DNA of 64,000 nt, from the IMG/VR virus record IMGVR_UViG_3300002026_000045, positions 32,001 to 96,000 of that record; one strand, written 5' to 3'. Numbering within the stretch: the first letter of the stretch is position 1; the number at the start of each line of letters is the position of its first letter. The stretch comes from a virus. The translations under genes and the position numbers were made by a program. The notes beneath the pieces are model-generated. The model saw only the letters and a list, made by a program, of their open reading frames with translations. It did not search any database and was not told the origin of the DNA. Positions 1 through 61,963 of this stretch are shown in pieces.

Positions 1-263
1 CCAGAGTATTTAGGGAGGAACGGATTTGCTTCATTTGCTATGCAATATTTAATCCACTCAACACCCATTCGTTGACCATCCGAAAGCTGGCCAGATGTTG
101 TCCCGCGGGTAGTTTTAAATATTTTTAGTATTTCGCCATTGGGTGCGAGGAAAGCAACTTGGTCCATTCCCTCACCTTTCATTTTATATCCTTGGCTGAC
201 CATATGACGTATTATACCTGGATATAAATCTTGTGCTTCAGTAATAAATTCTTTAGACTTCAT
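1..263 (-). CDS. Partial (runs off window) T7 gp0.7-like protein kinase with capsid-targeting N-terminus
   Basis: Manual translation from ATG 263: MKSKEFITEAQDLYPGIIRHMVSQGYKMKGEGMDQVAFLAPNGEILKIF...WIKYCIANEANPFLPKY; aligns with the kinase N-lobe in 58527..60194. Confidence 0.65.
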   Translation of the reverse strand, partial: MKSKEFITEAQDLYPGIIRHMVSQGYKMKGEGMDQVAFLAPNGEILKIFKTTRGTTSGQLSDGQRMGVEWIKYCIANEANPFLPKYS

Positions 264-271
264 GATGGTAT

Positions 272-1582
272 TTATTTGTCAAGCATTGCTGCAATTTCTG
301 CAGATTTTGATGCAAGCATTTCCTTAGTGTGATTTGCTTTGTCAATTGCCTCGGGCGATGCTGCTTTATCAAATTTTGATGACGATGCAGATTTTGTTAT
401 TTTTGCTAAGTAAATGCTTTTAACTTGTTGCAGCAAATCAGTAGCAGATTGCTTTCCTGCCATCTCTAACGTTTGAGCAATGCCTTTAAATGAGTTAATA
501 ATATCTGATATCCGTGGTTCGTCTAATGTACCAGGATACTGTTTGAGCAACGGGCTAATTTTTGCACAGCCAAAATACTTTACGATATCAATACCCCAGG
601 TGTCTGGATTATTTGTAATAGTCTGCAAAGTTGTATTTTTAACAGTTCTAAATGGAACTAATTCACCATTGACAGTTTTTGCTTGAATGCCATGACCGCC
701 GCCAAAACTTAAACTAAGAGCTTCGCCTAATGATGAATACAACGAATTGCATAGAACCCCTTTAACCTGGTAGGCTGGCCTTAGCGCACGGGTCCAATTT
801 TTGTTTTCATAGTAGCTTGCAACTAAATCTACTTGCACATACTCTTTGCCAACTTTAAGAATAATATTAGTGCCGTTGTTTGTTGAATAGTTTTGTGTAG
901 AGTCACAAAATTCCTTAATAGCAGTGCTATAGATATTGCTATTCTCGTTGTTTGTCGTGCCCTCGATGCGCGGAATGTGGAATTGCACATCAACATCGCC
1001 ATACTCGCGAGTTGGGTCTTGAGCTAAGTCTCGCTCGTAGTAAGTGGCACTGCCGCCAGGTGCTGAAATTTCAGTTGGTGCTAGACTTTTTGATGCTAAA
1101 AATTTGTTTAGCTGTGGTATGAATTGGTTAGAGAGCAGTTTCATTACATGCTGCACTAACTGCGGCGTTATCTTTGTTCCTTGTGTTTGCGTAGACGCCC
1201 ACCCACCTTCTTCTAATTTATTGCCAGTTACTTCTTGATACAATGCCCAGGCTTCTTTGTCACGGTGCAGCCCAGCTAATTTTTTAAATGTAGCTTTCTG
1301 AGCAGGCGTTGCAATTTTAAAAAACTTTGCCAAATCTATTATTCCTACATTTTTTGGGTAAGCAAGTTCTTCTAAGTCATCTTCATGCAACTTAACACCC
1401 ACAACAGATTGCATAAAGTGCCACGCTTCTTCCATCTTGCCTTCTGCTTTCAATTTCTTAAAATGTTTTTTCTGATCGTCAGTTGCAGTTTGGAAAAACT
1501 TAGTCAATTCCATGATCCCAATGTTACCTGGGTAAGCTAATTCTTTAACTACGCTTTCGCTAATGATTTCGTTTATTTTCAT
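272..1582 (-). CDS. Internal virion protein: two ~55-aa repeats plus Pol-beta-type nucleotidyltransferase domain
   Basis: MKINEIISE leader; LAYPxNxGI..L.KFF..AT repeat x2; GGS...GDVDV...QVDL catalytic pattern. Confidence 0.6.
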   Translation of the reverse strand: MKINEIISESVVKELAYPGNIGIMELTKFFQTATDDQKKHFKKLKAEGKMEEAWHFMQSVVGVKLHEDDLEELAYPKNVGIIDLAKFFKIATPAQKATFKKLAGLHRDKEAWALYQEVTGNKLEEGGWASTQTQGTKITPQLVQHVMKLLSNQFIPQLNKFLASKSLAPTEISAPGGSATYYERDLAQDPTREYGDVDVQFHIPRIEGTTNNENSNIYSTAIKEFCDSTQNYSTNNGTNIILKVGKEYVQVDLVASYYENKNWTRALRPAYQVKGVLCNSLYSSLGEALSLSFGGGHGIQAKTVNGELVPFRTVKNTTLQTITNNPDTWGIDIVKYFGCAKISPLLKQYPGTLDEPRISDIINSFKGIAQTLEMAGKQSATDLLQQVKSIYLAKITKSASSSKFDKAASPEAIDKANHTKEMLASKSAEIAAMLDK

Positions 1583-1727
1583 AATCTTTAATATTTGCTA
1601 ATGATTTCTTTTTATGCTCAATGCCTGCTTTTGCAATTTCGTCAATATGTCGTTTGCACCCAATGCAAACATTATTCTTATCTAATTTGCATATCTTAAT
1701 GCAAGGCGATGGAGCGGAACTGCTCAT
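1560..1727 (-). CDS. DUF1289-like small Cys-rich protein (55 aa)
   Basis: Manual translation MSSSAPSPCIKICKLDKNNVCIGCKRHIDEIAK...; SPC..C.LD...C.GC.R..DEI pattern. Confidence 0.7.
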   Translation of the reverse strand: MSSSAPSPCIKICKLDKNNVCIGCKRHIDEIAKAGIEHKKKSLANIKDYENKRNH

Positions 1728-1732
1728 AATTA

Positions 1733-2338
1733 TTATATATTTAACTCATAATAAAGTGCAGGTGGCAGCAAATAATATTTTTCGCAATTGAATAATACTT
1801 CATGCATTGATGCCCTTGCTGCTTGCAATGACCCATTCACGCCATATGTTTGCAACATTTCAATCAACTGAGGAGACATTTTCTTAATGTCTTCCTCATC
1901 ATAATGAAATGTACTGCCAAAACCAGTGTCAGTGAGCATTATGTCAACCGCAGAAAATAAGTCATCAATTGTGTCTGACCAGCAAAAATCAAAATCCCCA
2001 ATGGGAATAAACACATACGGAAACCCGTATTGTTTGCTTTCTGTTTCACTGCCAGTGGCAAATGTTGCTGCACTTCTCCATCTGTGACCAAGTTTAGCTG
2101 CAAACCAGTTATCTAAAAACTGATGTATCTCCAATGGCATATCCTTGGGAGAACGATTTTTTATTGTCGTGCACTCTGTAATTTCTGTGTATCGTGTATG
2201 CGTTCCCCTGAAAAATGGAATTGACAACCCGTATCTTAGATAACTTGCACAATTTGCCTGGATTAATTTAGTCGCGTGGGCAAGTTCTGACTCAGAGTGC
2301 AACGTCCCGTATTCTAAAATTATTTCGTGTGCTCGCAT
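1733..2338 (-). CDS. Capsid-targeted protein, possible ADP-ribosyltransferase fold; paralog of 61349..61963
   Basis: MRAHEIILE leader; FFRG / FATGS..YG / HEVL motifs; shares PIG.F.FCWS..I.DL and CEKYYLL with paralog. Confidence 0.5.
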   Translation of the reverse strand: MRAHEIILEYGTLHSESELAHATKLIQANCASYLRYGLSIPFFRGTHTRYTEITECTTIKNRSPKDMPLEIHQFLDNWFAAKLGHRWRSAATFATGSETESKQYGFPYVFIPIGDFDFCWSDTIDDLFSAVDIMLTDTGFGSTFHYDEEDIKKMSPQLIEMLQTYGVNGSLQAARASMHEVLFNCEKYYLLPPALYYELNI

Positions 2339-2342
2339 TTGA

Positions 2343-2999
2343 TTATCCGTAAACTAAAGAATCTATTCGTTTATATTTGATGTTGAAGGCTGACATTAGC
2401 AATTCAACCTCACGTAAACATTCCCCGCGGCCGCCGCCTACAATGTAAGCACCACTAAATTTTTTAAGCAACGCAACATCTGCCCATCCAACTGAAATGG
2501 GATCACCCATCCCAATTAAATAATCGTGTCCAAGCAATTGCTTCATACCTTCTTCGTATGTATCAGAATCCGCACCACCAAATAACTGTCTACTGTCTGT
2601 TATTTTATTTTGGTACATCATCCTAACTGCCTTGATAATAGCAGCATCAGCTACGCCTTGGTCCATCCAGCTTCTCAGGTATCCATATCCCTTGTCATAC
2701 ACTTGAAATCTTGACCAGTTAATTTGTGACGGTTGCTCAATGTATTCATCATACTCTGCTTCGCCATTTACAGTGTCTTCCCAATATTGTTTAACGTCCT
2801 GAACCGTGTCACCAGATAACCCATCACGCTCTGCGTTAACCATCAGTAATACTGGCCCAGTGGATTTAACTACAAAATTAATAATCTCTGGGAATAATGC
2901 ACTTTCCTCTCCGTCGTTCATACCAGAATACTCTGGTTGAACATCAATGCAAATAATTGGGTGTGACAACCCTTCTGTGATAAATTCGGTTGATCTCAT
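2343..2999 (-). CDS. Isochorismatase/nicotinamidase-like cysteine hydrolase, capsid-targeted
   Basis: MRSTEFITE leader; IICIDVQ, DKGYG, VGGGRGECL (Asp-Lys-Cys triad pattern). Confidence 0.6.
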   Translation of the reverse strand: MRSTEFITEGLSHPIICIDVQPEYSGMNDGEESALFPEIINFVVKSTGPVLLMVNAERDGLSGDTVQDVKQYWEDTVNGEAEYDEYIEQPSQINWSRFQVYDKGYGYLRSWMDQGVADAAIIKAVRMMYQNKITDSRQLFGGADSDTYEEGMKQLLGHDYLIGMGDPISVGWADVALLKKFSGAYIVGGGRGECLREVELLMSAFNIKYKRIDSLVYG

Positions 3000-3403
3000 A
3001 TTCTAATTACCTGCCCCTCGCCAGTCCATTTTGTATCTCGCACAGTAGTGGTTGCAACATAATTGTCTACATCACTCCTTACAACTGCAATGAATATATA
3101 TGTGTGCGGATCGTAAAACACAAAACTTGTCCCTGGCACTTTCCCTTTGAAAAACTGCATCCCACGTTTTAAAATTTTAACAATAGTTTCCATTAACTCT
3201 TTGACAGTATACAGACCAACTTTCCCGCGCTTTAGTTTTATTTGATCAAAAAAATGATTTGAAAATCTCATTTTATAACCGTGTTTGTCAAAGTAACCTT
3301 CAGCAACGTTAACTACCTGCCTAAACTCGGCCATTAACTCAGGCGTATAAAGAATATTTACATTCCAATCACTATGTTCAACCATAAACTCAGTTGAGAT
3401 CAT
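2996..3403 (-). CDS. Capsid-targeted hypothetical protein
   Basis: Start re-assigned to ATG 3403 (MISTEFMVE), which forms an ATGA overlap with the upstream stop. Confidence 0.6.
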   Translation of the reverse strand: MISTEFMVEHSDWNVNILYTPELMAEFRQVVNVAEGYFDKHGYKMRFSNHFFDQIKLKRGKVGLYTVKELMETIVKILKRGMQFFKGKVPGTSFVFYDPHTYIFIAVVRSDVDNYVATTTVRDTKWTGEGQVIRI

Positions 3404-3882
3404 CGCATGCATTCCTTCTTGATTATTTGCATTGACCTGTTATCATTGATTAAACTAACTAGTCCAGGATGTAGTGGAGACGGCCATTGGCCAAACTCAA
3501 ACCAATCTGACCCTTGAGTTTCCCAATCTGTAATTGGTGTAAATTCAGATGGAACTAATGCTAAGAAGTTGTAGTAAGTAAATCCAGACGGATGGTTAAA
3601 TGTAAACAACGGAAGCAATTTAATTGGGCCAGTATATGATGCTTCCTCACTGACCTCACGCTTAACTGCGGTTGCAGGGTCTTCACCATCATCAATTGCG
3701 CCGCCCCAAGTGCCCCAAGTATTTGGTTGCTCAACGTTATTAGACCTATGCGCAATGCAAATACGTTTTGTGTCTGCTGCAAGAAACAAACACCCAGCAC
3801 CTTGCCTACCCCAAAACCCAGTTTTCTCTAATGCAGCTTTGTGCTCTTCATCTGACTCAAATATAAATTCTGCTGCTTTCAT
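3400..3882 (-). CDS. Nudix hydrolase, capsid-targeted
   Basis: Nudix box GGAIDDGEDPATAVKREVSEEAS; MKAAEFIFE leader. Confidence 0.9.
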   Translation of the reverse strand: MKAAEFIFESDEEHKAALEKTGFWGRQGAGCLFLAADTKRICIAHRSNNVEQPNTWGTWGGAIDDGEDPATAVKREVSEEASYTGPIKLLPLFTFNHPSGFTYYNFLALVPSEFTPITDWETQGSDWFEFGQWPSPLHPGLVSLINDNRSMQIIKKECMR

Positions 3883-4751
3883 TTAATTGCCTCCCATTTT
3901 TTGCACAATGCATTTTTAAGGGCTAGCAATGTTGGAATCTTATTTTGCCGCATATACTTAATAATAGCAGTTGCTGAATCAAATCCAGTGTTTCCTGGCT
4001 TCCTTTCACTAGCAAATGAATTGCCTAACCCTGAGTCTTCATTTTCATATCTTGACCCATAGTAAACTAAATTGTATCTTAACTTATCTGCGTCTGGAGT
4101 TAATTCTGCTTTACTTTTCTTGTGTATTAACTCTATCCAAGGCTCTAGGTAATCAGTTGGTGGCCGATATTGTTTTTGTGTTGGAGTAACACCAGCCAAT
4201 AAATCACCTGCGTTCTTTACACTAATTGCTTTATTTGTATTTTGCAATCTCCATGCTTGCTCGTCGTTGTACAAGTATGTAGGAATCCTGCGCTTTTTGC
4301 CTGCTAACAAAATCCCACGTGTCAATGGGCTACGCCATTCGTCTTGCTCTTTAATGTATGCGTGAATGCCAATAACGCCGCCAAGAGGAATCTCAGGCGT
4401 TTTGCTGAATACTCTATCTTCTGCTTCACGAGTTCTGTCACCGACATTAAGCCAACTACGATCCCAGTAGTCAATTGGTTGAGTTTTATAATTATGATTT
4501 AGCCAATTACCGTCAATGACGAACATTACTGCGGCACTTCCCGTATAGCGATGATAATCACCTACTTTAGTTCGTGTAGTAGAAAAGAAATAATCATATC
4601 CTGCTGGGGCATATCGCTCTTCAGAAGGATTGCCAGTTGAGCGTGATAATTGGAAGAAACCGTCTTGCAAAATGCTAGCAGCATTACGTGTACTTGTGTA
4701 ATGATACACAATGCTTGACGCCATTTCTGTTAAGAATTCATCAGAGATCAT
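3879..4751 (-). CDS. Putative ADP-ribosyltransferase-like protein, capsid-targeted
   Basis: MISDEFLTE leader; VYHYT, FFSTTR, EAEDRV motifs in ART-like order. Confidence 0.5.
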   Translation of the reverse strand: MISDEFLTEMASSIVYHYTSTRNAASILQDGFFQLSRSTGNPSEERYAPAGYDYFFSTTRTKVGDYHRYTGSAAVMFVIDGNWLNHNYKTQPIDYWDRSWLNVGDRTREAEDRVFSKTPEIPLGGVIGIHAYIKEQDEWRSPLTRGILLAGKKRRIPTYLYNDEQAWRLQNTNKAISVKNAGDLLAGVTPTQKQYRPPTDYLEPWIELIHKKSKAELTPDADKLRYNLVYYGSRYENEDSGLGNSFASERKPGNTGFDSATAIIKYMRQNKIPTLLALKNALCKKWEAIK

Positions 4752-4752
4752 A

Positions 4753-6909
4753 TTATGACTCTTTTACTATACTAATAATCTCGCCACGATTGAGATTCTC
4801 TCCTGCCATTTTTGCTTCTGCATAGTCCCTTGCAGATACTGCTGCCTGCGTGTGATCAGCAAAATCTATAAACCATCTGCCCCATGGTCTCTGAGGTGGC
4901 TGTGCTGTTTGCTGCGGTGGTGCCGCTGGTTGTGGTTCATTTATACGATGTGGCACAACCTCAAATTCTTGTTGCACTACATTATGCCCATTGCTAGTCA
5001 ACCATCCAGCAGCCATGCGGTTTGCATCACGTTGGGTAGTTGGACCATTTAAAATATGTACTAAATTTCCTTGCTCGTCCATAATATCCCACGCATGCTC
5101 CCCTACATTTGTCAAATTAGGGGCTGTTGGTTCAATATATTTTTTTATTGCAATTGCCTTCATTGCATTGTCTGGGGCGTCAATGTCGCGTATCCCCCAT
5201 TCTTTACGGGCTACTATTTTCGCTTCATCAGCAGACGTTGCAACTACTTCAATGGAAGAAGCATGGCCAGCAATTGAAACTTTATACCAATATTTTTCAC
5301 CAGCCTCTGGGTTTCTTTCTGTTTTGCGCTGAAGTTGAACTTGTTTGACAAAACTGCGCAAAGCCGCAGCTGGCAATTCTCCAGCTGCATATTGAGCAAA
5401 ATATTTTATTGTGTCATCACCGCTGCTAGATGGCGCAAGCATTAAATATAATTTTTTTAAATATTCATTCCTTGATTTTTGTGGATCACATGCTGCATCT
5501 AACGCAACTACCATTCGAAGTAAGGTAGGCTCAATTTTATCATAAAACTTGCCAAGCCAATCATCCCCAGGGCTACGAAATTCAACATACCCTTCTTTAT
5601 TGTTAATACTGGTATATTTGTCAGTGCTGCCACTGTGAATTGCCCTACTAGCAAGTTTGTTTAGACCAGCCCGCATCTTGTCCATCATTGGCTGGGCCAA
5701 TTCAGGTCTCATTCTTGCATACCGTTTAACTTGATCCAACCCAGACTTGCAATATGTATTTGCTTCTCTCTCAAATTGTTCTAAAACGTATTGGTCCCCA
5801 AGCAAGATGGCAAGTTTAACATAATCTAAATTACTCTCGCTCATACCAGGTACACTTACATTTATGTGTAACCCAGTTGACGAGTTAGTGTAACAGCCCT
5901 GGCTATCTGCCCATGCTTTGACTTTCTTTAAGTCCGACAACATCTCTGGCAATGGAAGTGGAGGGCTAACAAATTCAACCCCACCATCACTTGAATCCTC
6001 AGGCTCATCTAAACTCGAGTCTGGCTCAACCACATACGAAACATCGTTACGTTTAGCGCCATGATATCTGTCACTTGACGCAACTGGACGCCCAATCATA
6101 CTCTCAAACTCTTTTGCAATGTCGTCAAATGACCTACTGCCGCCCCCACCACCTGAACTGTAGTGTGGCCAATCTATAGCAATCCAATCAGCGTCACACA
6201 CGTCAGTCATATTAACTAGTCCAACGTCTCTGAGCCAGTCTCGTTCTTCAGGATATGACCAATCTTCGCGGTAATCTTCTAACGCATAATCGTAAGTTCG
6301 ACCTTCAAGTTCCCATTCTTCCTCAACCATTTCTTCTAACTTAGCGTCGGCCGCGGAACACGCGGCTCTCCAATGTTTTTCATCGTCACTGTTGTAAGTT
6401 ACCTCTCCCGCGACGCGATTGTATTTTCTAGCATTGATTTGAATCCCTACTTTTTCAGCACGATTCTTCTCGTCATCACTTAGGCCCAAATCCTCTAATG
6501 CAATAGTTATTGCTTCATTTTCATCCCACAGCGAATTGTTTACTATATAGTCTCTGAGCGCGTCTTTCCCTTCATTTCTCCATTCTCTGTGAAATTCTTC
6601 GTCTGCCCATTCATAGTATCGCTCCTCTAACTTTTCTCTCATTCGTTGAATAGCATTTCCACTGTTCATACTTGTTTCGTCATTTGAGAAAAATTCAACT
6701 ATGTCGTCTATGCTGTTGGCACGTTCATCCATGTCATAATTTGGCTCGTACTCATCACCACCGTCATTGTCTGACTCAGTGTCTGGGACATACATCTCAA
6801 ATTCCATCCCAACATAGGCATCAATTGATGCAGCCATGCGTCGCAATGAGGCAGGCCCCATTGCGAGTTCGCTTAAAAGTTGTGGTTCTACAAATTGTTC
6901 TGCTCGCAT
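4753..6909 (-). CDS. Putative amidoligase (COOH-NH2 ligase type 2)
   Basis: GMEFE, PDSSL, EFVSPP, STGLHINV, KYTSIN, VEFRSPG motifs; variant leader MRAEQFVE..LLSE. Confidence 0.8.
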   Translation of the reverse strand: MRAEQFVEPQLLSELAMGPASLRRMAASIDAYVGMEFEMYVPDTESDNDGGDEYEPNYDMDERANSIDDIVEFFSNDETSMNSGNAIQRMREKLEERYYEWADEEFHREWRNEGKDALRDYIVNNSLWDENEAITIALEDLGLSDDEKNRAEKVGIQINARKYNRVAGEVTYNSDDEKHWRAACSAADAKLEEMVEEEWELEGRTYDYALEDYREDWSYPEERDWLRDVGLVNMTDVCDADWIAIDWPHYSSGGGGGSRSFDDIAKEFESMIGRPVASSDRYHGAKRNDVSYVVEPDSSLDEPEDSSDGGVEFVSPPLPLPEMLSDLKKVKAWADSQGCYTNSSTGLHINVSVPGMSESNLDYVKLAILLGDQYVLEQFEREANTYCKSGLDQVKRYARMRPELAQPMMDKMRAGLNKLASRAIHSGSTDKYTSINNKEGYVEFRSPGDDWLGKFYDKIEPTLLRMVVALDAACDPQKSRNEYLKKLYLMLAPSSSGDDTIKYFAQYAAGELPAAALRSFVKQVQLQRKTERNPEAGEKYWYKVSIAGHASSIEVVATSADEAKIVARKEWGIRDIDAPDNAMKAIAIKKYIEPTAPNLTNVGEHAWDIMDEQGNLVHILNGPTTQRDANRMAAGWLTSNGHNVVQQEFEVVPHRINEPQPAAPPQQTAQPPQRPWGRWFIDFADHTQAAVSARDYAEAKMAGENLNRGEIISIVKES

Positions 6910-6930
6910 AAGTTATTTTGTTTAATAACT

Positions 6931-6936
6931 TATTTA
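6931..6936 (-). promoter_or_regulatory. T4-like late promoter (TAAATA) upstream of the internal-protein cluster
   Basis: GATAAATA upstream of 6909; same hexamer recurs before many late-type genes. Confidence 0.6.
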
Positions 6937-6946
6937 TCTAAGCAAT

Positions 6947-7531
6947 TTACAACCTGTTAGTTACAATCTCATCTGCAAGCCCATACTCAAGGGCCACCTT
7001 AGCAGACATGAAGTTGTCACGTTCCATATCAGCAGCAAGTTGATCGAATGTTTTGCCTTTGCTGTTATGATCAACGTAGATTTGTGTTAGATTGCGTTTC
7101 ATTTCTAAAATCTCGTTGACTTGGATCAACATGTCAGTTGCTTGACCTCTAGCTCCACCTGACGGCTGGTGAATCATATGCCTTGCGTTAGGCAGCATCA
7201 TGCGCCTGCCTGGTGCGCCTGCTTGTGCAAGCAATGAGCCCATGCTACACGCTTGGCCCATAACTACTGTACGAATATCACATTTAACGAAATTCATGCA
7301 ATCATAAATCGCCATGCCAGCAGTAACTTCACCGCCTGGAGAATTCACATACATGAAAATCTCCTTGCCGGCGTCTTCTGATTCAAGAAATAGCATTTGC
7401 GCTACTACAACATGCGACATTTCAGTTGCGATGGGGCCATTTAGGAAAATAATACGGTCGCGAAGGAGCCTAGAAAATAGGTCATACGATCGCTCGCCTT
7501 TAGATGTCGTTTCAATCACAAATGGTATCAT
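6947..7531 (-). CDS. clpP: ATP-dependent Clp protease proteolytic subunit
   Basis: YDLFSRLLRDRIIFL, NSPGG, GQACSMG (Ser), MIHQP (His), MERDNFM (Asp). Confidence 0.97.
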   Translation of the reverse strand: MIPFVIETTSKGERSYDLFSRLLRDRIIFLNGPIATEMSHVVVAQMLFLESEDAGKEIFMYVNSPGGEVTAGMAIYDCMNFVKCDIRTVVMGQACSMGSLLAQAGAPGRRMMLPNARHMIHQPSGGARGQATDMLIQVNEILEMKRNLTQIYVDHNSKGKTFDQLAADMERDNFMSAKVALEYGLADEIVTNRL

Positions 7532-7555
7532 ATTCTTCTCTTTTAACTAAATAAA

Positions 7556-8506
7556 TTGTATGCTATATTAAAGGCCCACACCATTATGAAACTTTTATCA
7601 CACACTGAGTTTATTTTACACGCAACCACTATTCATTGCAAGTTATATGATTATTCATTGATCCAATTTCCAGTAACGAGATCACAACGAATTTCAGTCA
7701 TTGATCCAGAATTTGGGGTGTTTGAAACTAATGTAAATCGACATCTTGCCGGGGCTGGCCATAAAAAACGTGGGGCAATAAAATCAGCCGATACTCGCAG
7801 AATGTCAACTGCAGATTTTATTTATCGGGCAAACAAGATACATAAAAACTTTTATGACTATTCAAAAGTTGTTTATAAAAGTATGACTATAAAAATCTGC
7901 ATCGTTGATCCAGAATACGGTGAATTTTTTCAATCCCCAGCTGGGCACTTGGATGGTCAAGGCCATCCTCAGCGAGGGAACAAAAAAGCAGCAGATAAAC
8001 GAAAAATGGGGTTAAGTAAATTTATAACACAATCTCGCAGTAAACACGGTGATCTATATGATTACACCAAAGTTAATTATGTCAATTGTGACACAAAAGT
8101 ATGTATAGTTGACCCTGAATATGGAGAGTTTTGGCAAAGTCCTTGGCAACATTTAAAATCTCATGGTTGCCCAGCACGAACAAAAAATAAAAAATGGGCC
8201 ATTCATCAAGACCATATTATTCCACTGTCAATATTGCGGCAAGGAAAAGTCGTAAATAAATGGTATGAAAATCGTCCACTATTTAAATTTTTAAATAGTG
8301 GCATAAATTTAGTTAGTGTGACAGCAAAATTTAATATTGATAAAAGTGATTTTATAACAGTAAACGGCAAAAAAATTGCCGCAAGCACAATAAGAAATAA
8401 TTATGACATTATTGCTCATCTTATTAAGACATTACTTAACATTGACCCAACTTTAATTATTCAAGAAGATCAAAGTTATATAAAAGAATATTTTAATTTA
8501 ACTTAG
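7556..8506 (+). CDS. Free-standing HNH-type homing endonuclease with three ~68-aa N-terminal repeats
   Basis: Repeats H..YDY.KV.Y......ICIVDPEYGEF.QSP..HL; C-terminal DHIIPLS...NL...N..KSD; opposite strand to neighbours. Confidence 0.7.
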   Translation: MYAILKAHTIMKLLSHTEFILHATTIHCKLYDYSLIQFPVTRSQRISVIDPEFGVFETNVNRHLAGAGHKKRGAIKSADTRRMSTADFIYRANKIHKNFYDYSKVVYKSMTIKICIVDPEYGEFFQSPAGHLDGQGHPQRGNKKAADKRKMGLSKFITQSRSKHGDLYDYTKVNYVNCDTKVCIVDPEYGEFWQSPWQHLKSHGCPARTKNKKWAIHQDHIIPLSILRQGKVVNKWYENRPLFKFLNSGINLVSVTAKFNIDKSDFITVNGKKIAASTIRNNYDIIAHLIKTLLNIDPTLIIQEDQSYIKEYFNLT

Positions 8507-15629: not shown

Positions 15630-16451
15630 TTATCTAATTAAACTAAGCAAATATTGTGGGAATTGATTGACAATTCCTAACGTAGACGACATGAGTTGTT
15701 GCCTGCTTTGTAGCAATGACAATTGATTTGACAATTCTGCAACATCAGCGTCCTCAATTGAAGAAATTGAACTCTTTAGTGAGAGCTGAGTTGTAGCAAC
15801 ATTTTCAGCAGTCTTTTTCAATCCTGAAATCTGAGAGCCAATAATTGCCTGGTTTGTTCCAACAGTAGCAGAGGCAGTGTCAAGAGCAGTCATTGCGGCA
15901 GCCGCTTTTGTCGCGTCAGTAAGATCGATTGTGGCAGCATCAATATTCAAAGTAGCGCCGTCTGATTTTGCAGTAGCAATTGTTCTTGTATCACCAGAGT
16001 TGATGCCAGTTTGAATGTCTACGGATGCAGCCGCAGCACCAATTAAATTTTGACCAAACAATTTTGCACTGTTAGCAGTATTGTCTAATTGTTTTTGCAG
16101 TTCAGCAAAAGAACTTTGCAGTGCTGTGCGTTGATCTGCAGATAACAACGATGATGATGCTTGCGTAGCCAAATCCTTCATCTGTGTAATGATAGACTGC
16201 TGGGAGTCTAATGCGCCGTCAGCAACAGACAATAACGATTGTCCTGCACTAATATTCTTAGTTACAGCATTGTAACTTGATTGCTGCATTTTAAGAGATG
16301 ACAAGATAGCCATACCTGCAGGGTCGTCAGATGCAGACAAAATACGCTTGCCAGAACTAATCTGTGCAGATACTTTTTGTAATTGAGTAGCGTTGTCGTT
16401 TAAATTGCGAGCAATAGACGAAGCTAATGTGTTGGAGTTTAGTGATAACAT
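15630..16451 (-). CDS. fliC: Flagellin (minimal D0/D1, 273 aa)
   Basis: ISSGKRILSASDDPAGMAI, DQRTALQSSFAEL, C-terminal SSIEDADVAE...NQFPQYLLSLIR. Confidence 0.92.
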   Translation of the reverse strand: MLSLNSNTLASSIARNLNDNATQLQKVSAQISSGKRILSASDDPAGMAILSSLKMQQSSYNAVTKNISAGQSLLSVADGALDSQQSIITQMKDLATQASSSLLSADQRTALQSSFAELQKQLDNTANSAKLFGQNLIGAAAASVDIQTGINSGDTRTIATAKSDGATLNIDAATIDLTDATKAAAAMTALDTASATVGTNQAIIGSQISGLKKTAENVATTQLSLKSSISSIEDADVAELSNQLSLLQSRQQLMSSTLGIVNQFPQYLLSLIR

Positions 16452-31584: not shown

Positions 31585-31884
31585 TTATCTTACCTTGTTA
31601 GCAAGAGTGGCATACATTAGACGCTTATCAACCTCATCAGCAAAATCTGGAAATATAGCAAACAGTTGAAATGCATCAACCTCTTTATACTTTGATTCTT
31701 TTGTGCGCTTTACCTTCATCAGTGAAAACTGGGAATCGTGCTTTTTAAAACTAATTGCTTTGCCACGTGCTCCCCAGCCAGCGTACCACGATCCGCCAGC
31801 TTTAAATGCGGCCCATACCTTATCGTGTTTGTGGCCAGCAACTTCTTCGTTGCACCACCCAATATAATCAAAATCAATGCTCAC
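31585..31884 (-). CDS. WGR-like domain protein
   Basis: HDKVW...WGARG...K..KY. Confidence 0.55.
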   Translation of the reverse strand: MSIDFDYIGWCNEEVAGHKHDKVWAAFKAGGSWYAGWGARGKAISFKKHDSQFSLMKVKRTKESKYKEVDAFQLFAIFPDFADEVDKRLMYATLANKVR

Positions 31885-31888
31885 TCTA

Positions 31889-32080
31889 TCACCCCAATGT
31901 AAATTTCCGTAAGTATTCGCTGGCGTCTGACACGTCTAAGTCCGCATCCCAAATCTCGTTGTCTTGCGCATCCTGGATTAAAAAATCAGTGCCTGGATGC
32001 GTGTTAGCAAAAGTCGGCACTTTGGCAATAAGCCCAATGGATATCAAATATCCAAGCAATTCTCTGTCTTTGTCATTCAT
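31889..32080 (-). CDS. Hypothetical protein
   Basis: GAGG RBS. Confidence 0.5.
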   Translation of the reverse strand: MNDKDRELLGYLISIGLIAKVPTFANTHPGTDFLIQDAQDNEIWDADLDVSDASEYLRKFTLG

Positions 32081-32241
32081 TCTGTGTCCTCACTGAGCAA
32101 CTCAAACAACCCAGCCAACGCTTCTTTCTCAGCAACAGTAGTTGAAAAATCAACGGCTGGACGACCAGAAATAAGTGATTGAACAATGGATTCAAATGCA
32201 GTCATAATATACTCCTTAATACCGTTTTATCTACAGTTCAT

Positions 32242-32270
32242 ATTATAATGCCATCTAATCAAAAAGTCAA
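32242..32270 (-). promoter_or_regulatory. Early promoter
   Basis: TTGACT-17-TATAAT. Confidence 0.7.
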
Positions 32271-54507: not shown

Positions 54508-54903
54508 CTACATGCGTTTGTTTGTTGCCCGTTTAGCCATTTGATCAACTGTATCCTCTGGATTTTGCGCAACATTAGATTCATCACCATGCATTTCATT
54601 GTCATCATCTGTATCAAAATCTGATTTAAGGATGACTTCATTTTCATTGAAACTTTTAATTAGTTCTTTAACTGCTTCATCAGACTCATGTGCCGCAACT
54701 AACGTCTCATAATCAAAGGTAACATCACCAGCGTTTTTAACAAGGCGAATTAAACTGTCAGTTCTAAGCTTAGGGGTTAGTTCTTTGTCTTCACTTCTGT
54801 TTCGCAAAAACATTAGCACAGGAACTAAATTTGCAGAAAGAGATGAGCTAGACAATTGCTCGCTAGCACTTACATCTTCGTTAATGATTTCACTTATTTT
54901 CAT
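54508..54903 (-). CDS. Putative head core/internal protein
   Basis: MKISEIINE leader; TVDQMAKRA. Confidence 0.6.
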   Translation of the reverse strand: MKISEIINEDVSASEQLSSSSLSANLVPVLMFLRNRSEDKELTPKLRTDSLIRLVKNAGDVTFDYETLVAAHESDEAVKELIKSFNENEVILKSDFDTDDDNEMHGDESNVAQNPEDTVDQMAKRATNKRM

Positions 54904-55343
54904 TATACTCCGCGGCTGCGGCCCGCTGCTCGTCCTGCCATTGCGCCAACGGTTGCATCTTTTTTGTCAGCTGCTTTATTTGGGTCTTCATTTTTAACTG
55001 ACATATTTTTAAACTTAACTTTTTTCTCGTCAATACTGTCAATCATACTTTGAATTTCTTGTGACTTTTTGTTAATAGCAATTAAGTCAGCTAAGTTAAC
55101 AGGCTTTCCAGCAATTTCAATTACTTTAGTTAAGAACGGCAGCAATTCAACTTGAGCGTGTCCTTGCCCTTTGTACATGTCACAAACTTTTTTAACTGCA
55201 TTGATCATCTTAGTATCAGCGTTGGAAGATAATTCCATCTCTAATTCTTTATCACCTGCCCAGTCCGAATCCATTCCATCGTGACCCATCACGCCGTGAT
55301 CAAAATCACGGAATCCTTCAGTAATAATTTCATTTATTTTCAT
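54903..55343 (-). CDS. Putative head core/internal protein, paralog of 54508..54903
   Basis: Start re-assigned to MKINEIITE (55343); TVGAMAGRA. Confidence 0.6.
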   Translation of the reverse strand: MKINEIITEGFRDFDHGVMGHDGMDSDWAGDKELEMELSSNADTKMINAVKKVCDMYKGQGHAQVELLPFLTKVIEIAGKPVNLADLIAINKKSQEIQSMIDSIDEKKVKFKNMSVKNEDPNKAADKKDATVGAMAGRAAGRSRGV

Positions 55344-57723: not shown

Positions 57724-58113
57724 TTACTTGCTGTGATCCTTTTGCGACCAAAACTGTTTCCCCATGCTTGTCTGTAACTTAGAAGGGGCAATGTCGTTAC
57801 CTAATTCACGTGCCATTTTATACATTTCAGTTGCAATACCTTTTCTGCGATGAGCTGGCTGTATAGACAAGTCCAATGCTTCCAACTTGCCATCGTGCAC
57901 TTCAAAGTTTACCCAGCCACACTCTACACCTTTTTCTGTGCGGGCAGTAATACGAAACTGGTCGCTCTTATGTGAGTTTTTAGAGCCATACGACACATAC
58001 CCAGCAGTGGCAGTTAACGTATAAGCACCATTCAAGATAGGTTTCTTTTGATTAAAGTCTGTGTAAAAGACTTTATCATTTACTTTTTCATCTACAATTT
58101 CAGTTGCTCGCAT
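57724..58113 (-). CDS. GNAT acetyltransferase, capsid-targeted
   Basis: MRATEIVDE; IQPAHRRKGIATEMY; QT..GK.FW. Confidence 0.85.
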   Translation of the reverse strand: MRATEIVDEKVNDKVFYTDFNQKKPILNGAYTLTATAGYVSYGSKNSHKSDQFRITARTEKGVECGWVNFEVHDGKLEALDLSIQPAHRRKGIATEMYKMARELGNDIAPSKLQTSMGKQFWSQKDHSK

Positions 58114-58114
58114 A

Positions 58115-58525
58115 TTATTTTTTAGAACTTATCAATGATTGCAAGATAAACATTAAAAATCTCCCTAGATTTAACGCTAAGTTTTTTAACGCATTATCTC
58201 TGTCACGCTGCGGTATACTACGCCATCTTTCAACAAACGCCCTAGCAAAATAAGTTAAATATGGTACTATTTTTTCAATGACAGTTCGATTAGCTTCTGC
58301 CGCCTCCGCCGCCAATCGTTTAGCACGTTCACCTTCCATAAATTTTGCAACTAGTATTGCAGCAACATCATCTGGTAAATTTGTTGGTGCTCTTTTTCGT
58401 GCCATCTCAATATCCATCGGCCTTGGTTTTGGCACATTTAAAAAATCATCTATTTTTTTAAATATATAATCGCCTAACCCTTCTGAGATAATCTCAGACT
58501 CATTAATAAATTCTATTGATTTCAT
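58115..58525 (-). CDS. Capsid-targeted helical protein
   Basis: Start re-assigned to MKSIEFINESEIISE (58525). Confidence 0.6.
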   Translation of the reverse strand: MKSIEFINESEIISEGLGDYIFKKIDDFLNVPKPRPMDIEMARKRAPTNLPDDVAAILVAKFMEGERAKRLAAEAAEANRTVIEKIVPYLTYFARAFVERWRSIPQRDRDNALKNLALNLGRFLMFILQSLISSKK

Positions 58526-58526
58526 T

Positions 58527-60194
58527 TTATTTCTCCGCAAACCAAGGATCAACAATCACTAACTGACCGTTACTGCGTTGCATTACATTTTCTGTATGTA
58601 AATCCCACCACATGTCATTAATTTTACCTGTTGCAAAAAGCATTTGCATCACATTAAATAAAATACCATAAGTGGAGTTAAACTTAGGATTAGTTGCCAT
58701 TTTCTTAATAACAGTCCCAAAGTCATCGAGTTCTATACCAGGAAAATCATTCCAAAATGGTGACCACGACATTCTCGAAACTGCATTTTCCCATCTGTCT
58801 ATAGTATCATCAGCTGCCAAGTCTGATAACGCCCACACTAGTTTCTCTTCAATTGACCCACTTTTAATATGTGATAGCCGTTCCATTGCAATCTGCCTAT
58901 ATTGTGTGTTCCCAATTGTGAACGGTGCATGGTGTAATCCCTGCACCTCTCTAAATTTTGGCAAGCATGGGACATTTTGATGAGCCATGCAAAACTCGTA
59001 AAATCCTAGGAAAATACGCTCTGCTTCACCTACTGATGGATCGTTGGGCATGAGTATCTTAATAACTGTTGCTTCGTCCTTGGCCCACACTGTAGCATCA
59101 GCACCGCTGCCCAATTTTTTATATCCTAGCGCCTTAAGTTTAGCGTATATTATTTTTGCATTTGGAGTACCAACCTCTGATTCGTCAACAGGCTCTTCTT
59201 TCATTAGGTGCTCTGCATCACCTCTTTTCCGCCATGATCTCCACATGTTTCTACCATCAGGTAATTGATGCCCACTGGGTTCAATAGTATTGCCTAACAT
59301 TCTAGCATACGCATACATAGTAGACGCTATACCTTGCCGTTGATAGAGCGGGTCAACAGAGGTTAATGCACTGATCAATGATTCTCCGTATGCAGAGTAA
59401 AACTGAGCTTCACCAACTTTGGTTTCTCCGTCAAAGCATCGCACAATAAGTTGCGGTGTTTTGCTATAACCAGCAACTTGCATGTGGGCCGTATATCGAT
59501 AATCCCCAATCTCCTGCTCGTCCTTAAATCGTGGATCAAGAATGTCAGGGTTAATTTCTTCCTTCATTAACTTAGTAACACGCGGTTTAAACAACTGCAC
59601 ATCGCCTTTGTTTGTTTTTAACACTGGCTGATTGTGCTTATCTTTCTTAAAGCCTTTGATCTCTGCGGGAGAGTTTTTAAACTTGCCCTTGAGAATTTTA
59701 TCCCCAACTTCAAGTGATGGAGGCTGATAGGTTTCACTCTCAGCAACACCTAGTGTTTTGTTATCCCAATGTTTATCCCATGCTTTACCAACTAAGTCTT
59801 CTTCTTTAGCCCAAGTGCCCAATGGTTTCCACCCTGCAGATGGCCCATACCGCTTTTCATTTTCGTTTGGTTCTTTGTCGCGATGATATTTGTATGCTTG
59901 CACAACTTTAGTGCCACCATACGAGAATGTAAACTCTACCATAATTAGTGGACGAATTTTTCCTTCAGCAGTTCTATGTATTTCAGGAAAAAACGAGAAT
60001 ACATCAACCTTAGTAAACCCAACACTTGACACTCCATGCTTATAAGCGTGGTGATAGTTGCGATACTCTTGGAACCACGGATGTTTAATTAAGGAATTCA
60101 TTTTGCCTTTTCCTAGCAATTTCTGTAACTCTTGGTCAGTACATTGCGTCATTGGCTTCTCAGCACCTTCAGTAATAAATTGTTTTGATCTCAT
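58527..60194 (-). CDS. Multidomain internal protein: unknown + SH3/KOW-like + GNAT + T7 gp0.7-like kinase
   Basis: MRSKQFITE; VDPLYQRQGIASTMY; LGSGADA.V, VIKI, DLHTENVM, IVDPW. Confidence 0.8.
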   Translation of the reverse strand: MRSKQFITEGAEKPMTQCTDQELQKLLGKGKMNSLIKHPWFQEYRNYHHAYKHGVSSVGFTKVDVFSFFPEIHRTAEGKIRPLIMVEFTFSYGGTKVVQAYKYHRDKEPNENEKRYGPSAGWKPLGTWAKEEDLVGKAWDKHWDNKTLGVAESETYQPPSLEVGDKILKGKFKNSPAEIKGFKKDKHNQPVLKTNKGDVQLFKPRVTKLMKEEINPDILDPRFKDEQEIGDYRYTAHMQVAGYSKTPQLIVRCFDGETKVGEAQFYSAYGESLISALTSVDPLYQRQGIASTMYAYARMLGNTIEPSGHQLPDGRNMWRSWRKRGDAEHLMKEEPVDESEVGTPNAKIIYAKLKALGYKKLGSGADATVWAKDEATVIKILMPNDPSVGEAERIFLGFYEFCMAHQNVPCLPKFREVQGLHHAPFTIGNTQYRQIAMERLSHIKSGSIEEKLVWALSDLAADDTIDRWENAVSRMSWSPFWNDFPGIELDDFGTVIKKMATNPKFNSTYGILFNVMQMLFATGKINDMWWDLHTENVMQRSNGQLVIVDPWFAEK

Positions 60195-60904
60195 TCAATC
60201 CACCTTGCTAGCATTGATGTTCTCCATAATCCACCTATTGGGCTATAACTGTTGTGATACACGTCAATACTGTTTTTAATTGTAGCTGCTAACTCTTGCT
60301 TAGTGACCTTCAACGGAAAGATAAACCAATGCTTGTCTTTGAACTTCCCTTGATAATCGCACCCAATTGACATAAGGTCGTTAACAATCTTGCCCACTTT
60401 GTCATTATGCTTCTTTTTAACTGCTGGGCTTTCCTGTGGCTTAGGGTCAGTAAAGTGCCAATCGCCAATTTCTAATGCTCCTACTACTTCACACCCTGGG
60501 ATCTTAGATAAACTAACCCAGTTCCGCCTACCGTCTGGAGTCTGTGAGCTACCAGATTGTAAATTCATGCGTTTAACTGTCAATGCAATACCGTAAAGTG
60601 CTTTAGCAAGTCCACGCCCACGGTAATCTTCGTCTACTGTAATAACACCAACTGAATAAGTGTTAGGTAGAAAAAAGTTACGAACTTTATGCAAAATCAA
60701 CTTACCAACAACTTTATTCGTGTCAACAATGTAAATTGTAAGATCCCCATGCATATTACTGTAAAAACCATATACTAAACCACTCCCACCTGGAAGCGGG
60801 TATGTTTTAGTAGGCTTCCCATCATGCCGTAAACTTTGCTTGCCACCCTCATAATCGTACGAGTTTAATCGCTCTATTTCTGTAATAAATTGAGTTGAAA
60901 GCAT
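60191..60904 (-). CDS. GNAT acetyltransferase, capsid-targeted
   Basis: MLSTQFITE; VDEDYRGRGLAKALY; QTPDGRRNW. Confidence 0.85.
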   Translation of the reverse strand: MLSTQFITEIERLNSYDYEGGKQSLRHDGKPTKTYPLPGGSGLVYGFYSNMHGDLTIYIVDTNKVVGKLILHKVRNFFLPNTYSVGVITVDEDYRGRGLAKALYGIALTVKRMNLQSGSSQTPDGRRNWVSLSKIPGCEVVGALEIGDWHFTDPKPQESPAVKKKHNDKVGKIVNDLMSIGCDYQGKFKDKHWFIFPLKVTKQELAATIKNSIDVYHNSYSPIGGLWRTSMLARWIE

Positions 60905-60905
60905 C

Positions 60906-61352
60906 CTATACCTTTATAATAGAAAAATAATCATCAGATGATCCATGATCAGTAATGACTGAATGTGTATACCCTGGAACTTTGATTTTAGACAGCATAC
61001 GCTTATACAACTTTGTTCTATTACCGTCTGCTTTGTGCGAGCTAAATGTAATTTCGTCAGGTGAAAATCGAGCAATAAGCTCATTGATTGACGCTATAGC
61101 AAATGAAAACACTTGCATTTCTCCACCGCTGCCAGTTTTAGCAAAAGTAGCGCCAGGATGATCTTTAGCTTTTTCTGAAAAATCAACTTCCCAAATTGTC
61201 CTGCCATTGTTATCACTATAACTAGCACAATTTACAGTTATAAACCTACCATTTATTTCTGCTCGTGTCGTAAACAAGTCGCTACTAGAGCGAACAATTT
61301 GCATTGGTACTTGACTTGAAAACGACTCTAATATAAATTCAAGTGATCTCAT
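60906..61352 (-). CDS. Capsid-targeted hypothetical protein
   Basis: MRSLEFILE; TG.G....VF, R.KLY.RM. Confidence 0.65.
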   Translation of the reverse strand: MRSLEFILESFSSQVPMQIVRSSSDLFTTRAEINGRFITVNCASYSDNNGRTIWEVDFSEKAKDHPGATFAKTGSGGEMQVFSFAIASINELIARFSPDEITFSSHKADGNRTKLYKRMLSKIKVPGYTHSVITDHGSSDDYFSIIKV

Positions 61353-61963
61353 TGCATTGCCTGCGTTAATATTTCAATGTAATCATAAGTTTTTACTTGA
61401 AGTAAGTAGTATTTTTCACATTTAACCATTATTTCATGCTGTGCGTTAATTGCTGCTTGAAGGTCAGTAACACGAAAATCGCCATCTTCTAAAATTTTAA
61501 TTATAGCTGGTGCTCGCTCACTTGAGTCAAGAGGAATATCTTTTACTCTTGGTACTGCGTCAGTTAAATCTTTGATTTTAGGAGACCAACAAAAAGAAAA
61601 ATTACCAATGGGAACAAACCGATGTAAATCACCATACGATCCTGCAGACTTAAAGTTACCAGAACAAAATGCAACTCTATCGCTTCTAAATGCAATACCA
61701 AATTTTTGTTTAAACCAAGCATCAACGACTTGCTGATCTGGCTTGTAAGAGTCCAATGGCTCTCTATATGATCTAGTAGTCCCTATTTTAACACGCGGAG
61801 TTACTTCAAATAAAGGAGTACCATAGCCAACACCTCGGTACAAAGAGTCAGAGGACCCTCGCATCTCTGTCAAAAACGGCTGGCAATGTTGTTTCAACAT
61901 TACTGCTATCTCGTTGATTTGGTCGTCCAACCTATTTTCAAGTAAAATCTCATTTATTCTCAT
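61349..61963 (-). CDS. Capsid-targeted protein, possible ART fold; paralog of 1733..2338
   Basis: MRINEILLE; LYRG, FCSG...A..YG, HEIM. Confidence 0.5.
   Translation of the reverse strand: MRINEILLENRLDDQINEIAVMLKQHCQPFLTEMRGSSDSLYRGVGYGTPLFEVTPRVKIGTTRSYREPLDSYKPDQQVVDAWFKQKFGIAFRSDRVAFCSGNFKSAGSYGDLHRFVPIGNFSFCWSPKIKDLTDAVPRVKDIPLDSSERAPAIIKILEDGDFRVTDLQAAINAQHEIMVKCEKYYLLQVKTYDYIEILTQAMQ

Follow-up and report, generated by a model that had tools for sequence, protein, structure and literature searches.

Why should a large set of dissimilar genes in one viral genome begin with nearly the same nine residues? This question is raised by a stretch of 64,000 nucleotides (hereafter the window) that corresponds to bases 32001-96000 of the 104,158-bp linear IMG/VR viral contig IMGVR_UViG_3300002026_000045, estimated by CheckV to be about 55% complete. 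Nearly all genes of this contig lie on the minus strand, and its content includes rIIA, rIIB, a ribonucleotide reductase, tail-fiber-like and other virion proteins, and ClpP. An initial annotation of the window had pointed to a peptide shared by the starts of 15 open reading frames (ORFs), and proposed that it is a swappable tag that addresses proteins to the phage capsid, like the leader of the internal proteins of phage T4. Here we analyze this N-terminal tag and the proteins that carry it; coordinates labeled "window" count from the first base of the window, and those labeled "contig" from that of the whole 104,158-bp contig.

A conserved N-terminal tag on clustered genes

The six-frame translation of the whole contig contains 19 matches to the pattern M-x3-[EQ]-[FILMV]-[ILMVF]-x-E, and every one of them (19/19) is the N-terminus of a minus-strand ORF. 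Seven belong to a gene cluster at the left end of the window (cluster A), eight to a second cluster (cluster B) and four to a third one past the right edge of the window (cluster C), with no match between 7 kb and 54 kb of the window, as had been claimed. Approximately 0.07 N-terminal matches are expected among the 179 called genes (Poisson P about 3e-40). Shuffling the residues of the proteins gave a mean of 0.46 matches (maximum 3) and shuffling the genome in codon blocks a mean of 0.38 (maximum 4), so the scan against shuffled controls that had been suggested returns 19 N-terminal matches against no more than 4, and the tag is confirmed as a feature far beyond chance. The 15 starts initially annotated are all minus-strand ATGs of ORFs of 123-555 aa that encode the peptides reported for them, and the variant tag noted at window 6909, MRAEQFVEPQLLSE, is likewise present.

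Position 9 of the 19 tags is an invariant glutamate (E19), and the remaining constrained positions show a narrow choice of residues: E17/Q2 at position 5, F11/I7/V1 at position 6, I12/L4/V2/M1 at position 7 and K10/R6/I2/L1 at position 2. Three variant tags, namely MRAEQFVEPQLLSE, MRLYEIDSS, which sits on a paralog of tagged proteins, and MKNFPFLQELTE, bring the total of tagged or variant-tagged proteins to 22. These comprise about 15 BLAST-distinct families, and kin among them include five members of the phrog_11975 family, two kinase-like paralogs and two to three GNATs; hence, the ORFs described as otherwise unrelated do represent numerous families, but not without paralogs. Three tagged starts (3403, 55343 and 58525) are internal to the longest ORF, and the tag therefore helps to locate the true start of these genes.

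Relationship to the capsid targeting sequence of T4

In T4 the capsid targeting sequence (CTS) MKTYQEFIAE is found on IPI, IPII, IPIII and Alt, and it suffices to load foreign proteins into the head. Residues 4 and 7 of this peptide are required for targeting, and residues 8 and 10 for its processing by gp21, which cuts after the final Glu; replacing this Glu by Asp abolishes processing but leaves targeting intact. A comparison of the two systems showed that: 1) the tag has the E-F-I-x-E core of the CTS, whose last Glu completes an (I/L)-x-E site, and equals the T4 peptide minus one residue, with its most conserved residues F6, I7 and E9 corresponding to F7, I8 and E10 of T4. 2) In both systems a short N-terminal propeptide is placed on unrelated proteins, and relatives of this phage possess a gp21-family protease together with a T4-type head module. 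3) The cargo includes a protein with a predicted ADP-ribosyltransferase (ART) fold, and that of T4 includes an ART (Alt). 4) The tag differs from the CTS in having nine residues rather than ten, the position of T4 Tyr4 being missing. 5) Half a genome already holds at least 19-22 tagged genes, as against a handful in T4, and most of the cargo proteins are enzymes, which reach 718 aa and in many cases are acidic, whereas the cargo of T4 is made up of small basic DNA-binding proteins. In AlphaFold2 (AF2) models of two cargo families, the 290-aa and 201-aa products of cluster A (pLDDT, the predicted local distance difference test score, 85.8 and 80.6), the tag is disordered (pLDDT <50; residues 1-7 and 1-11, respectively) and a folded domain follows it.

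Numerous uncultured relatives can be recovered via rIIA (~50% identity). Those represented by long contigs have a T4-type head module, and their major capsid protein shares 65-71% identity with its counterparts in PA5oct, CBB, Phosso and Vibrio 2.275.O. On the basis of this capsid similarity the phage is placed in the Rak2/PA5oct/Atu_ph07-like group of jumbo phages. At the DNA level, the only similarity of window 1-7600 to cultured phages is in ClpP. The protease of the gp21 type (Peptidase_S77) is encoded by the relatives G001, G002 and the complete 363-kb G005, and also by PA5oct, Slickus01 and K566; in G001 the module has the order portal, a 278-aa protein, Peptidase_S77 protease, scaffold and major capsid protein. 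The same three relatives bear the same tag (e.g. MRAKEFITE, MKIQEIITE) in 3-7 exact copies, as compared to 0-1 for a control pattern, and arrays of tagged or variant-tagged genes occur in G001 and in further IMG/VR loci, with about ten consecutive genes in locus L083. A search of relatives of the kind that had been suggested finds the same tag in genomes that encode Peptidase_S77, and zero tags among the ~1,400 ORFs around rIIA in 57 related loci. The strict form MRAxEFIxE is present in at least 120 IMG/VR stretches, and since 138 of 145 matches open an ORF of at least 60 aa, they represent gene starts and not chance occurrences. In three IMG/VR loci (L080, L084 and L086, ~7.1-10.9 kb) a small plus-strand island of three tagged genes (MRFNEIISE, MNFKELLEG and MRATEFIAE) lies cassette-like inside a minus-strand block.

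Tagged proteins in the virions of Atu_ph07

The strongest support beyond the logic of the sequences comes from the virion proteome of the Agrobacterium jumbo phage Atu_ph07. The products of its tandem genes gp054-gp062 each begin with M[KR]WxQLxE, and gp408 is the tenth such protein; genome-wide there are exactly 10 starts of this form and none of a control form. Attai et al. 2018 list about 140 Atu_ph07 virion-associated proteins detected by electrospray ionization tandem mass spectrometry (ESI-MS/MS; Supplementary Table S5, PMC6102473). All ten M[KR]WxQLxE proteins are in this list with 3-15 unique peptides each, as are the variant-tagged gp053 and gp063 along with gp064 and gp065 (PMC6102473). 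Given that ~140 of ~700 proteins were detected, the hypergeometric probability of finding 10/10 is about 1e-7. In that study gp053-gp063 and gp408 are annotated as hypothetical and the tag is not described (PMC6102473).

These proteins are also linked to our contig by homology. In BLASTP searches the product of window 1733-2338 recovers gp054, gp057 and gp060-gp063 with E-values of 1e-11 to 1e-15, and gp059 marginally (E 0.001), so that six of the ten tagged Atu_ph07 proteins (gp054, gp057, gp060-gp062 and, marginally, gp059) are detectable homologs; further, a variant-tagged 432-aa protein of the contig aligns to gp064. Atu_ph07 resembles our phage in having phrog_11975 paralogs and a uniform tag, in Atu_ph07 of eight residues and ending in L-x-E; homologs of gp21 and gp23 are encoded by Atu_ph07. 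It differs in the tag itself (M[KR]WxQLxE as against M[KR]xxEFIxE) and in that its array is largely one paralogous family, as opposed to about 15 tagged families in the phage considered here.

Modularity and lineage specificity of the tags

The 290-aa cargo protein of cluster A (window 3879-4751) has 223 homologs in the databases. Of the 120 that were listed, the majority open with the tag or something close to it, and a conserved strand of the form AATxIVYHY comes directly after. Some have a second xILDE site, and in others a further domain precedes the homologous part, to which it is joined at an (I/L)xE junction. In other phages the start of these homologs is different: Alishewanella phage Slickus01 has an array of homologs starting with MKIDxLYESLLEE; the homolog of the T4-like Vibrio phage K566 has the leader MKKFNEFANELAE; that of Salicola SCTP-2 has only MNLNES, and in Dickeya phage JA11 the leader is absent. 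As homologs of this cargo have different tags in other phages, and none in JA11, the tag is an add-on that is uniform within a genome, variable between lineages and terminated by (L/I)xE. In this respect the proposal that the leader is swappable has fared well.

A scan for the exact motif in four cultured Rak2-like phages (PA5oct, CBB, Vibrio 2.275.O and Phosso) and in Slickus01 gave background levels, and therefore the sequence of the tag is not universal in this group. Its absence from Atu_ph07 and Slickus01 is accounted for, as judged from their gene starts, by tags that are specific to their lineages. The phrog_11975 profile retrieves 6,385 representative clusters (50% identity), many of which start with a CTS-like peptide; among cultured phages the family is found in Atu_ph07 and SCTP-2. 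One database protein of 2,645 aa (P0129) contains five phrog_11975 domains in a single chain, a fusion resembling the polyvalent proteins.

Late-type promoter motifs

The T4 late promoter TATAAATA has as its core the heptamer ATAAATA, which ranks first among the coding-strand 7-mers of the intergenic DNA (16 occurrences as against 3 on the other strand). It is located 11-33 nt upstream of tail, fiber and virion genes and likewise of three genes of the clusters: the amidoligase gene that heads cluster A (window 6937), the gene of the kinase-like protein (window 275) and, after a hairpin, the gene that opens the cluster B run (window 61974). Scans for sigma-70 promoters showed no enrichment in either cluster, and Atu_ph07 encodes a candidate for a gp55-like late sigma factor (Table S3, PMC6102473). 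Since ATAAATA precedes both clusters and the structural genes, and sigma-70 promoters are not enriched, late expression of the tagged genes is plausible, as far as such motifs can indicate. The spacing between motif and ATG falls into two groups, of 11-16 nt and of 23-33 nt, and in many genes TAAATA or ATAAATA stands just 5-12 nt before the ATG (window 275 and 61974; contig 99056, 99664 and 100302); this proximity suggests that some late mRNAs might be leaderless or nearly so.

Proposed function and alternative explanations

We consider it likely that the tag is a capsid-targeting propeptide of the T4 type, in an enlarged form of that system with many enzymes as cargo, and that the proteins bearing it are targeted to and packaged in the head. 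The initial idea of a capsid address on swappable cargo is supported by the match to the T4 CTS, the head module of the relatives, the lineage-specific tags and the virion proteins of Atu_ph07. Under this proposal the tagged genes would be transcribed late, and the tag would bind the scaffold core of the assembling prohead and so bring the protein attached to it inside. Cleavage after Glu9, at the (I/L/V)-x-E site, by a prohead protease of the gp21 type (Peptidase_S77) would then free the mature cargo inside the head. The cargo would accompany the DNA and, by analogy with Alt and IPI of T4, probably reach the host cell when infection starts and there act on host or defense targets. It would include one to several ART-fold proteins, two gp0.7-like kinases, GNATs, a Nudix protein, an amidoligase, a probable nucleotidyltransferase and others. 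Scaffold binding, cleavage, ejection and time of action are extrapolated in this scheme from known systems, and we hold injection and early action of the cargo with less confidence than the packaging itself.

Several observations weigh against this proposal. The evidence from this phage and its close relatives is that of gene sequences, from which cleavage and ejection of the tagged proteins are predicted by analogy with T4. No gene for Peptidase_S77, scaffold or capsid protein is present on the contig, and the protease of the phage itself is unseen because the contig is only about 55% complete. Several cargo proteins are large and acidic (isoelectric points 4.5-5.3), and T4 internal proteins are small and basic. 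PA5oct, CBB, Vibrio 2.275.O and Phosso, all cultured and Rak2-like, show no enrichment of the exact motif. The assignment of late promoters is based on the motif alone. Finally, the Atu_ph07 preparation was purified only with polyethylene glycol, and likely contaminants such as ribonucleotide reductase and topoisomerase are on its list.

The most serious alternative, to which we nevertheless assign a low likelihood, is that the tagged proteins are loaded into the head as core or scaffold material, like gp67 and gp68 of T4, and are degraded or structural rather than delivered enzymes. The T4 protease cuts core proteins to fragments, many tagged proteins have 1-12 further [LIV]-x-E sites each, and some are small and lack a match to known families (Pfam, PHROG), all of which would be in keeping with such a fate. 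Others, however, are still recognizable as enzymes: a Nudix protein complete with its box, an amidoligase, GNATs, kinase-like proteins and a protein with a predicted ART fold. Moreover, the Atu_ph07 homologs were recovered from virions with 12-47% sequence coverage and in gel bands assigned to proteins of ~30 kDa, close to full length (PMC6102473), which disfavors their degradation to small peptides.

The presence of a ClpP gene adjoining cluster A upstream raises a different prospect, that the N-terminus is a degron or a ClpS/ClpX tag by which a Clp system of the phage recognizes proteins for controlled degradation or for chaperoning, and is unrelated to capsid loading. The single tag-like gene of PA5oct, EST35_0271 (MKIKEIILE), is also beside ClpP, and PA5oct further encodes ClpX, ClpA and ClpS. 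We regard this as very unlikely, as the tag agrees with the T4 CTS and has the P1 Glu of gp21 as its last residue, a late-type promoter motif stands between ClpP and cluster A, clusters B and C are distant from ClpP, and tagged homologs are stable enough to be detected in Atu_ph07 virions. Least probable of all, by a small step, appears to be a signal in the nucleic acid, with the peptide as its by-product: either an element that boosts translation initiation where ribosome-binding sites are weak, or a cassette through which genes are shuffled by recombination. It could be argued that only 7 of the 22 tagged genes have a Shine-Dalgarno-like sequence, that the closeness of TAAATA to the ATG in many tagged genes suggests very short 5' leaders, and that shared 5' ends could aid cassette exchange, as proposed for the internal-protein loci of T-even phages. 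But a Shine-Dalgarno-like sequence is just as frequent in the other genes (61/160), the DNA upstream of tagged genes is not conserved, and synonymous codons vary freely at the conserved tag residues, where replacements are conservative (F/I, I/L/V, E/Q, K/R); these three observations indicate that selection acts on the peptide. Furthermore, the tag is retained in homologs of only 50-60% identity, and the analogous tag of Atu_ph07 is encoded by an unrelated nucleotide sequence.

The tagged proteins and their gene neighborhoods

The features of clusters A and B are collected in Table 1.

Table 1. Genes and sites of clusters A and B (window coordinates unless marked otherwise)
Feature	Length (aa)	N-terminal tag	Position	Strand	Evidence or remark
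Kinase-like tagged protein	222	MKSKEFITE	3..263 (contig 31595-32263, beyond window left edge)	minus	phrog_15752 (T7 gp0.7-type protein kinase), E 1.5e-6
Tagged protein	436	MKINEIISE	272..1582	minus	two N-terminal repeats, then probable pol-beta-type nucleotidyltransferase domain
DUF1289 Cys-rich ORF, within cluster A	55	untagged	1560..1727	minus	Pfam PF06945, E 5e-12
phrog_11975 family protein	201	MRAHEIILE	1733..2338	minus	PHROG E 1e-25
Tagged protein	218	MRSTEFITE	2343..2999	minus	weak isochorismatase lead, score 0.86
Tagged protein	135	MISTEFMVE	2996..3403	minus	true start ATG 3403, not 3412
Nudix hydrolase	160	MKAAEFIFE	3400..3882	minus	Pfam NUDIX E 1.5e-12, residues 27-136; PHROG MutT/NUDIX E 2.4e-22
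Tagged protein, predicted ART-fold N-terminal domain	290	MISDEFLTE	3879..4751	minus	AF2 and Foldseek
Amidoligase-domain protein, first gene of cluster A	718	MRAEQFVEPQLLSE (variant)	4753..6909	minus	Pfam Amidoligase_2 E 1.8e-7
ATAAATA			6931..6937	minus	28 nt upstream of amidoligase ATG
ClpP protease subunit, immediately upstream of cluster A		untagged	6947..7531	minus	Pfam CLP_protease E 5.8e-75
Tagged protein	131	MKISEIINE	54508..54903	minus	ORF start
Tagged protein	146	MKINEIITE	54903..55343	minus	ORF start
GNAT-like tagged protein	129	MRATEIVDE	57724..58113	minus	weak Pfam GNAT matches, E 2e-4
Tagged protein	136	MKSIEFINE	58115..58525	minus	ORF start
Tagged protein, C-terminal kinase-like domain	555	MRSKQFITE	58527..60194	minus	phrog_15752 E 7e-7
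GNAT acetyltransferase	237	MLSTQFITE	60191..60904	minus	Pfam Acetyltransf_1 E 1.5e-5
Tagged protein	148	MRSLEFILE	60906..61352	minus	ORF start
phrog_11975 paralog, first gene of run	204	MRINEILLE	61349..61963	minus	hairpin and TAATAAATA upstream

The cargo types that had been predicted are largely upheld: kinase-like, Nudix, amidoligase and predicted ART-fold proteins are recovered, while the nucleotidyltransferase is a lead only and the "cysteine hydrolase" amounts to a weak isochorismatase lead. The 222-aa kinase-like protein is a paralog of the C-terminal part of the product of window 58527-60194. The Nudix protein scores 48.1 bits against a cut-off of 21.1 and has the Nudix box G-x5-E-x7-REVxEE in its translation. 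For the model of the 290-aa protein the top Foldseek matches are all ARTs (DarT, Tpt1/KptA and pierisin; E about 3e-4, TM 0.34-0.48), and H17, S57 and E109/E111 are invariant in 46 homologs of this family; a PDB sequence search with the family profile gave nothing usable. An ART fold of its N-terminal domain is thus supported by structure prediction. An ART-like fold was also considered for the 201-aa phrog_11975 protein and is unproven, as Foldseek returned nothing significant and VIA-align gave Z-scores of at most 5.8, with several ARTs among mixed matches. The 218-aa protein has no match in Pfam, PHROG and PDB searches.

The 436-aa protein has no sequence match in Pfam, PHROG or PDB, nor in tblastn searches against phages; the Atlas leads are nucleotidyltransferase clusters and nucleotidyltransferase-like folds, and one Atlas structure neighbor is a 990-aa viral DUF6267 protein. 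Its two tandem repeats of ~50 aa (ELAYPxNxGIxxLxKFF...) each have (L/V)xE at their end, and hence it could be processed into several pieces. The start of its gene is overlapped by the DUF1289 ORF by 23 nt.

ClpP is a full-length domain (251.6 bits, profile positions 2-181 of 182) and is probably not the enzyme that processes the tag. In PA5oct EST35_0271 is divergent from ClpP (L077 14882-16021), and the PA5oct ClpP is flagged ESI-MS/MS in its record; the adjacency of ClpP and tag genes may reflect conserved synteny or coincidence. Elsewhere on the contig, a 273-aa ORF with a flagellin-like N-terminus (window 15630-16451) is found among the untagged genes of the middle region, and a 395-aa collagen-like ORF with GxY repeats (contig 100910-102097, right of the window) lies between tagged genes of cluster C.

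Implications and comparison with known systems

If the tag works as in T4, a single regular expression would reveal the packaged proteome of a large and mostly uncultured clade of giant phages, with dozens of candidate host-takeover or anti-defense enzymes that are in the cell from the moment of infection. The corresponding rule, a lineage-specific tag ending in (I/L)xE combined with a gp21-type protease, is consistent with the published virion proteome of Atu_ph07. A broader generalization, which we offer tentatively and consider somewhat less likely to hold than to fail, is that short address codes, specific to each lineage and co-evolving with its prohead core, specify the complete set of enzymes that T4-superfamily jumbo phages package and deliver to the host. 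Were this true, the injected proteome could be read from sequence, amounting in the present phage to more than 20 enzymes that act before any phage gene expression, and cargo could be exchanged between phages by swapping 8-13 residues. Short portable tags could also serve to load foreign proteins into jumbo-phage capsids, as in T4.

Our literature searches turned up no account of this tag, or of comparable arrays, in Rak2-like phages. Two further known systems invite comparison. The inner-body or ejection proteins of phiKZ and SPN3US similarly have N-terminal propeptides that load head proteins and are cut after Glu by a T4-related protease. However, those leaders are of ~100 residues or longer, are cleaved at A/S-x-E and have the virion RNA polymerase among their cargo, and leaders of such length are not seen here. 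The polyvalent proteins (Iyer et al., cited in PMC7824862) are likewise injected and bring together conflict domains such as ART, GNAT and nucleotide-targeting ones. In them these domains are fused in one giant polypeptide, whereas in the phage studied here they are distributed over separate tagged genes. The mechanism proposed for the tag is of a known kind; the novelty lies in how large and how rich in enzymes the arsenal is, in the lineage-specific code of the tags and in their link to an existing virion proteome.

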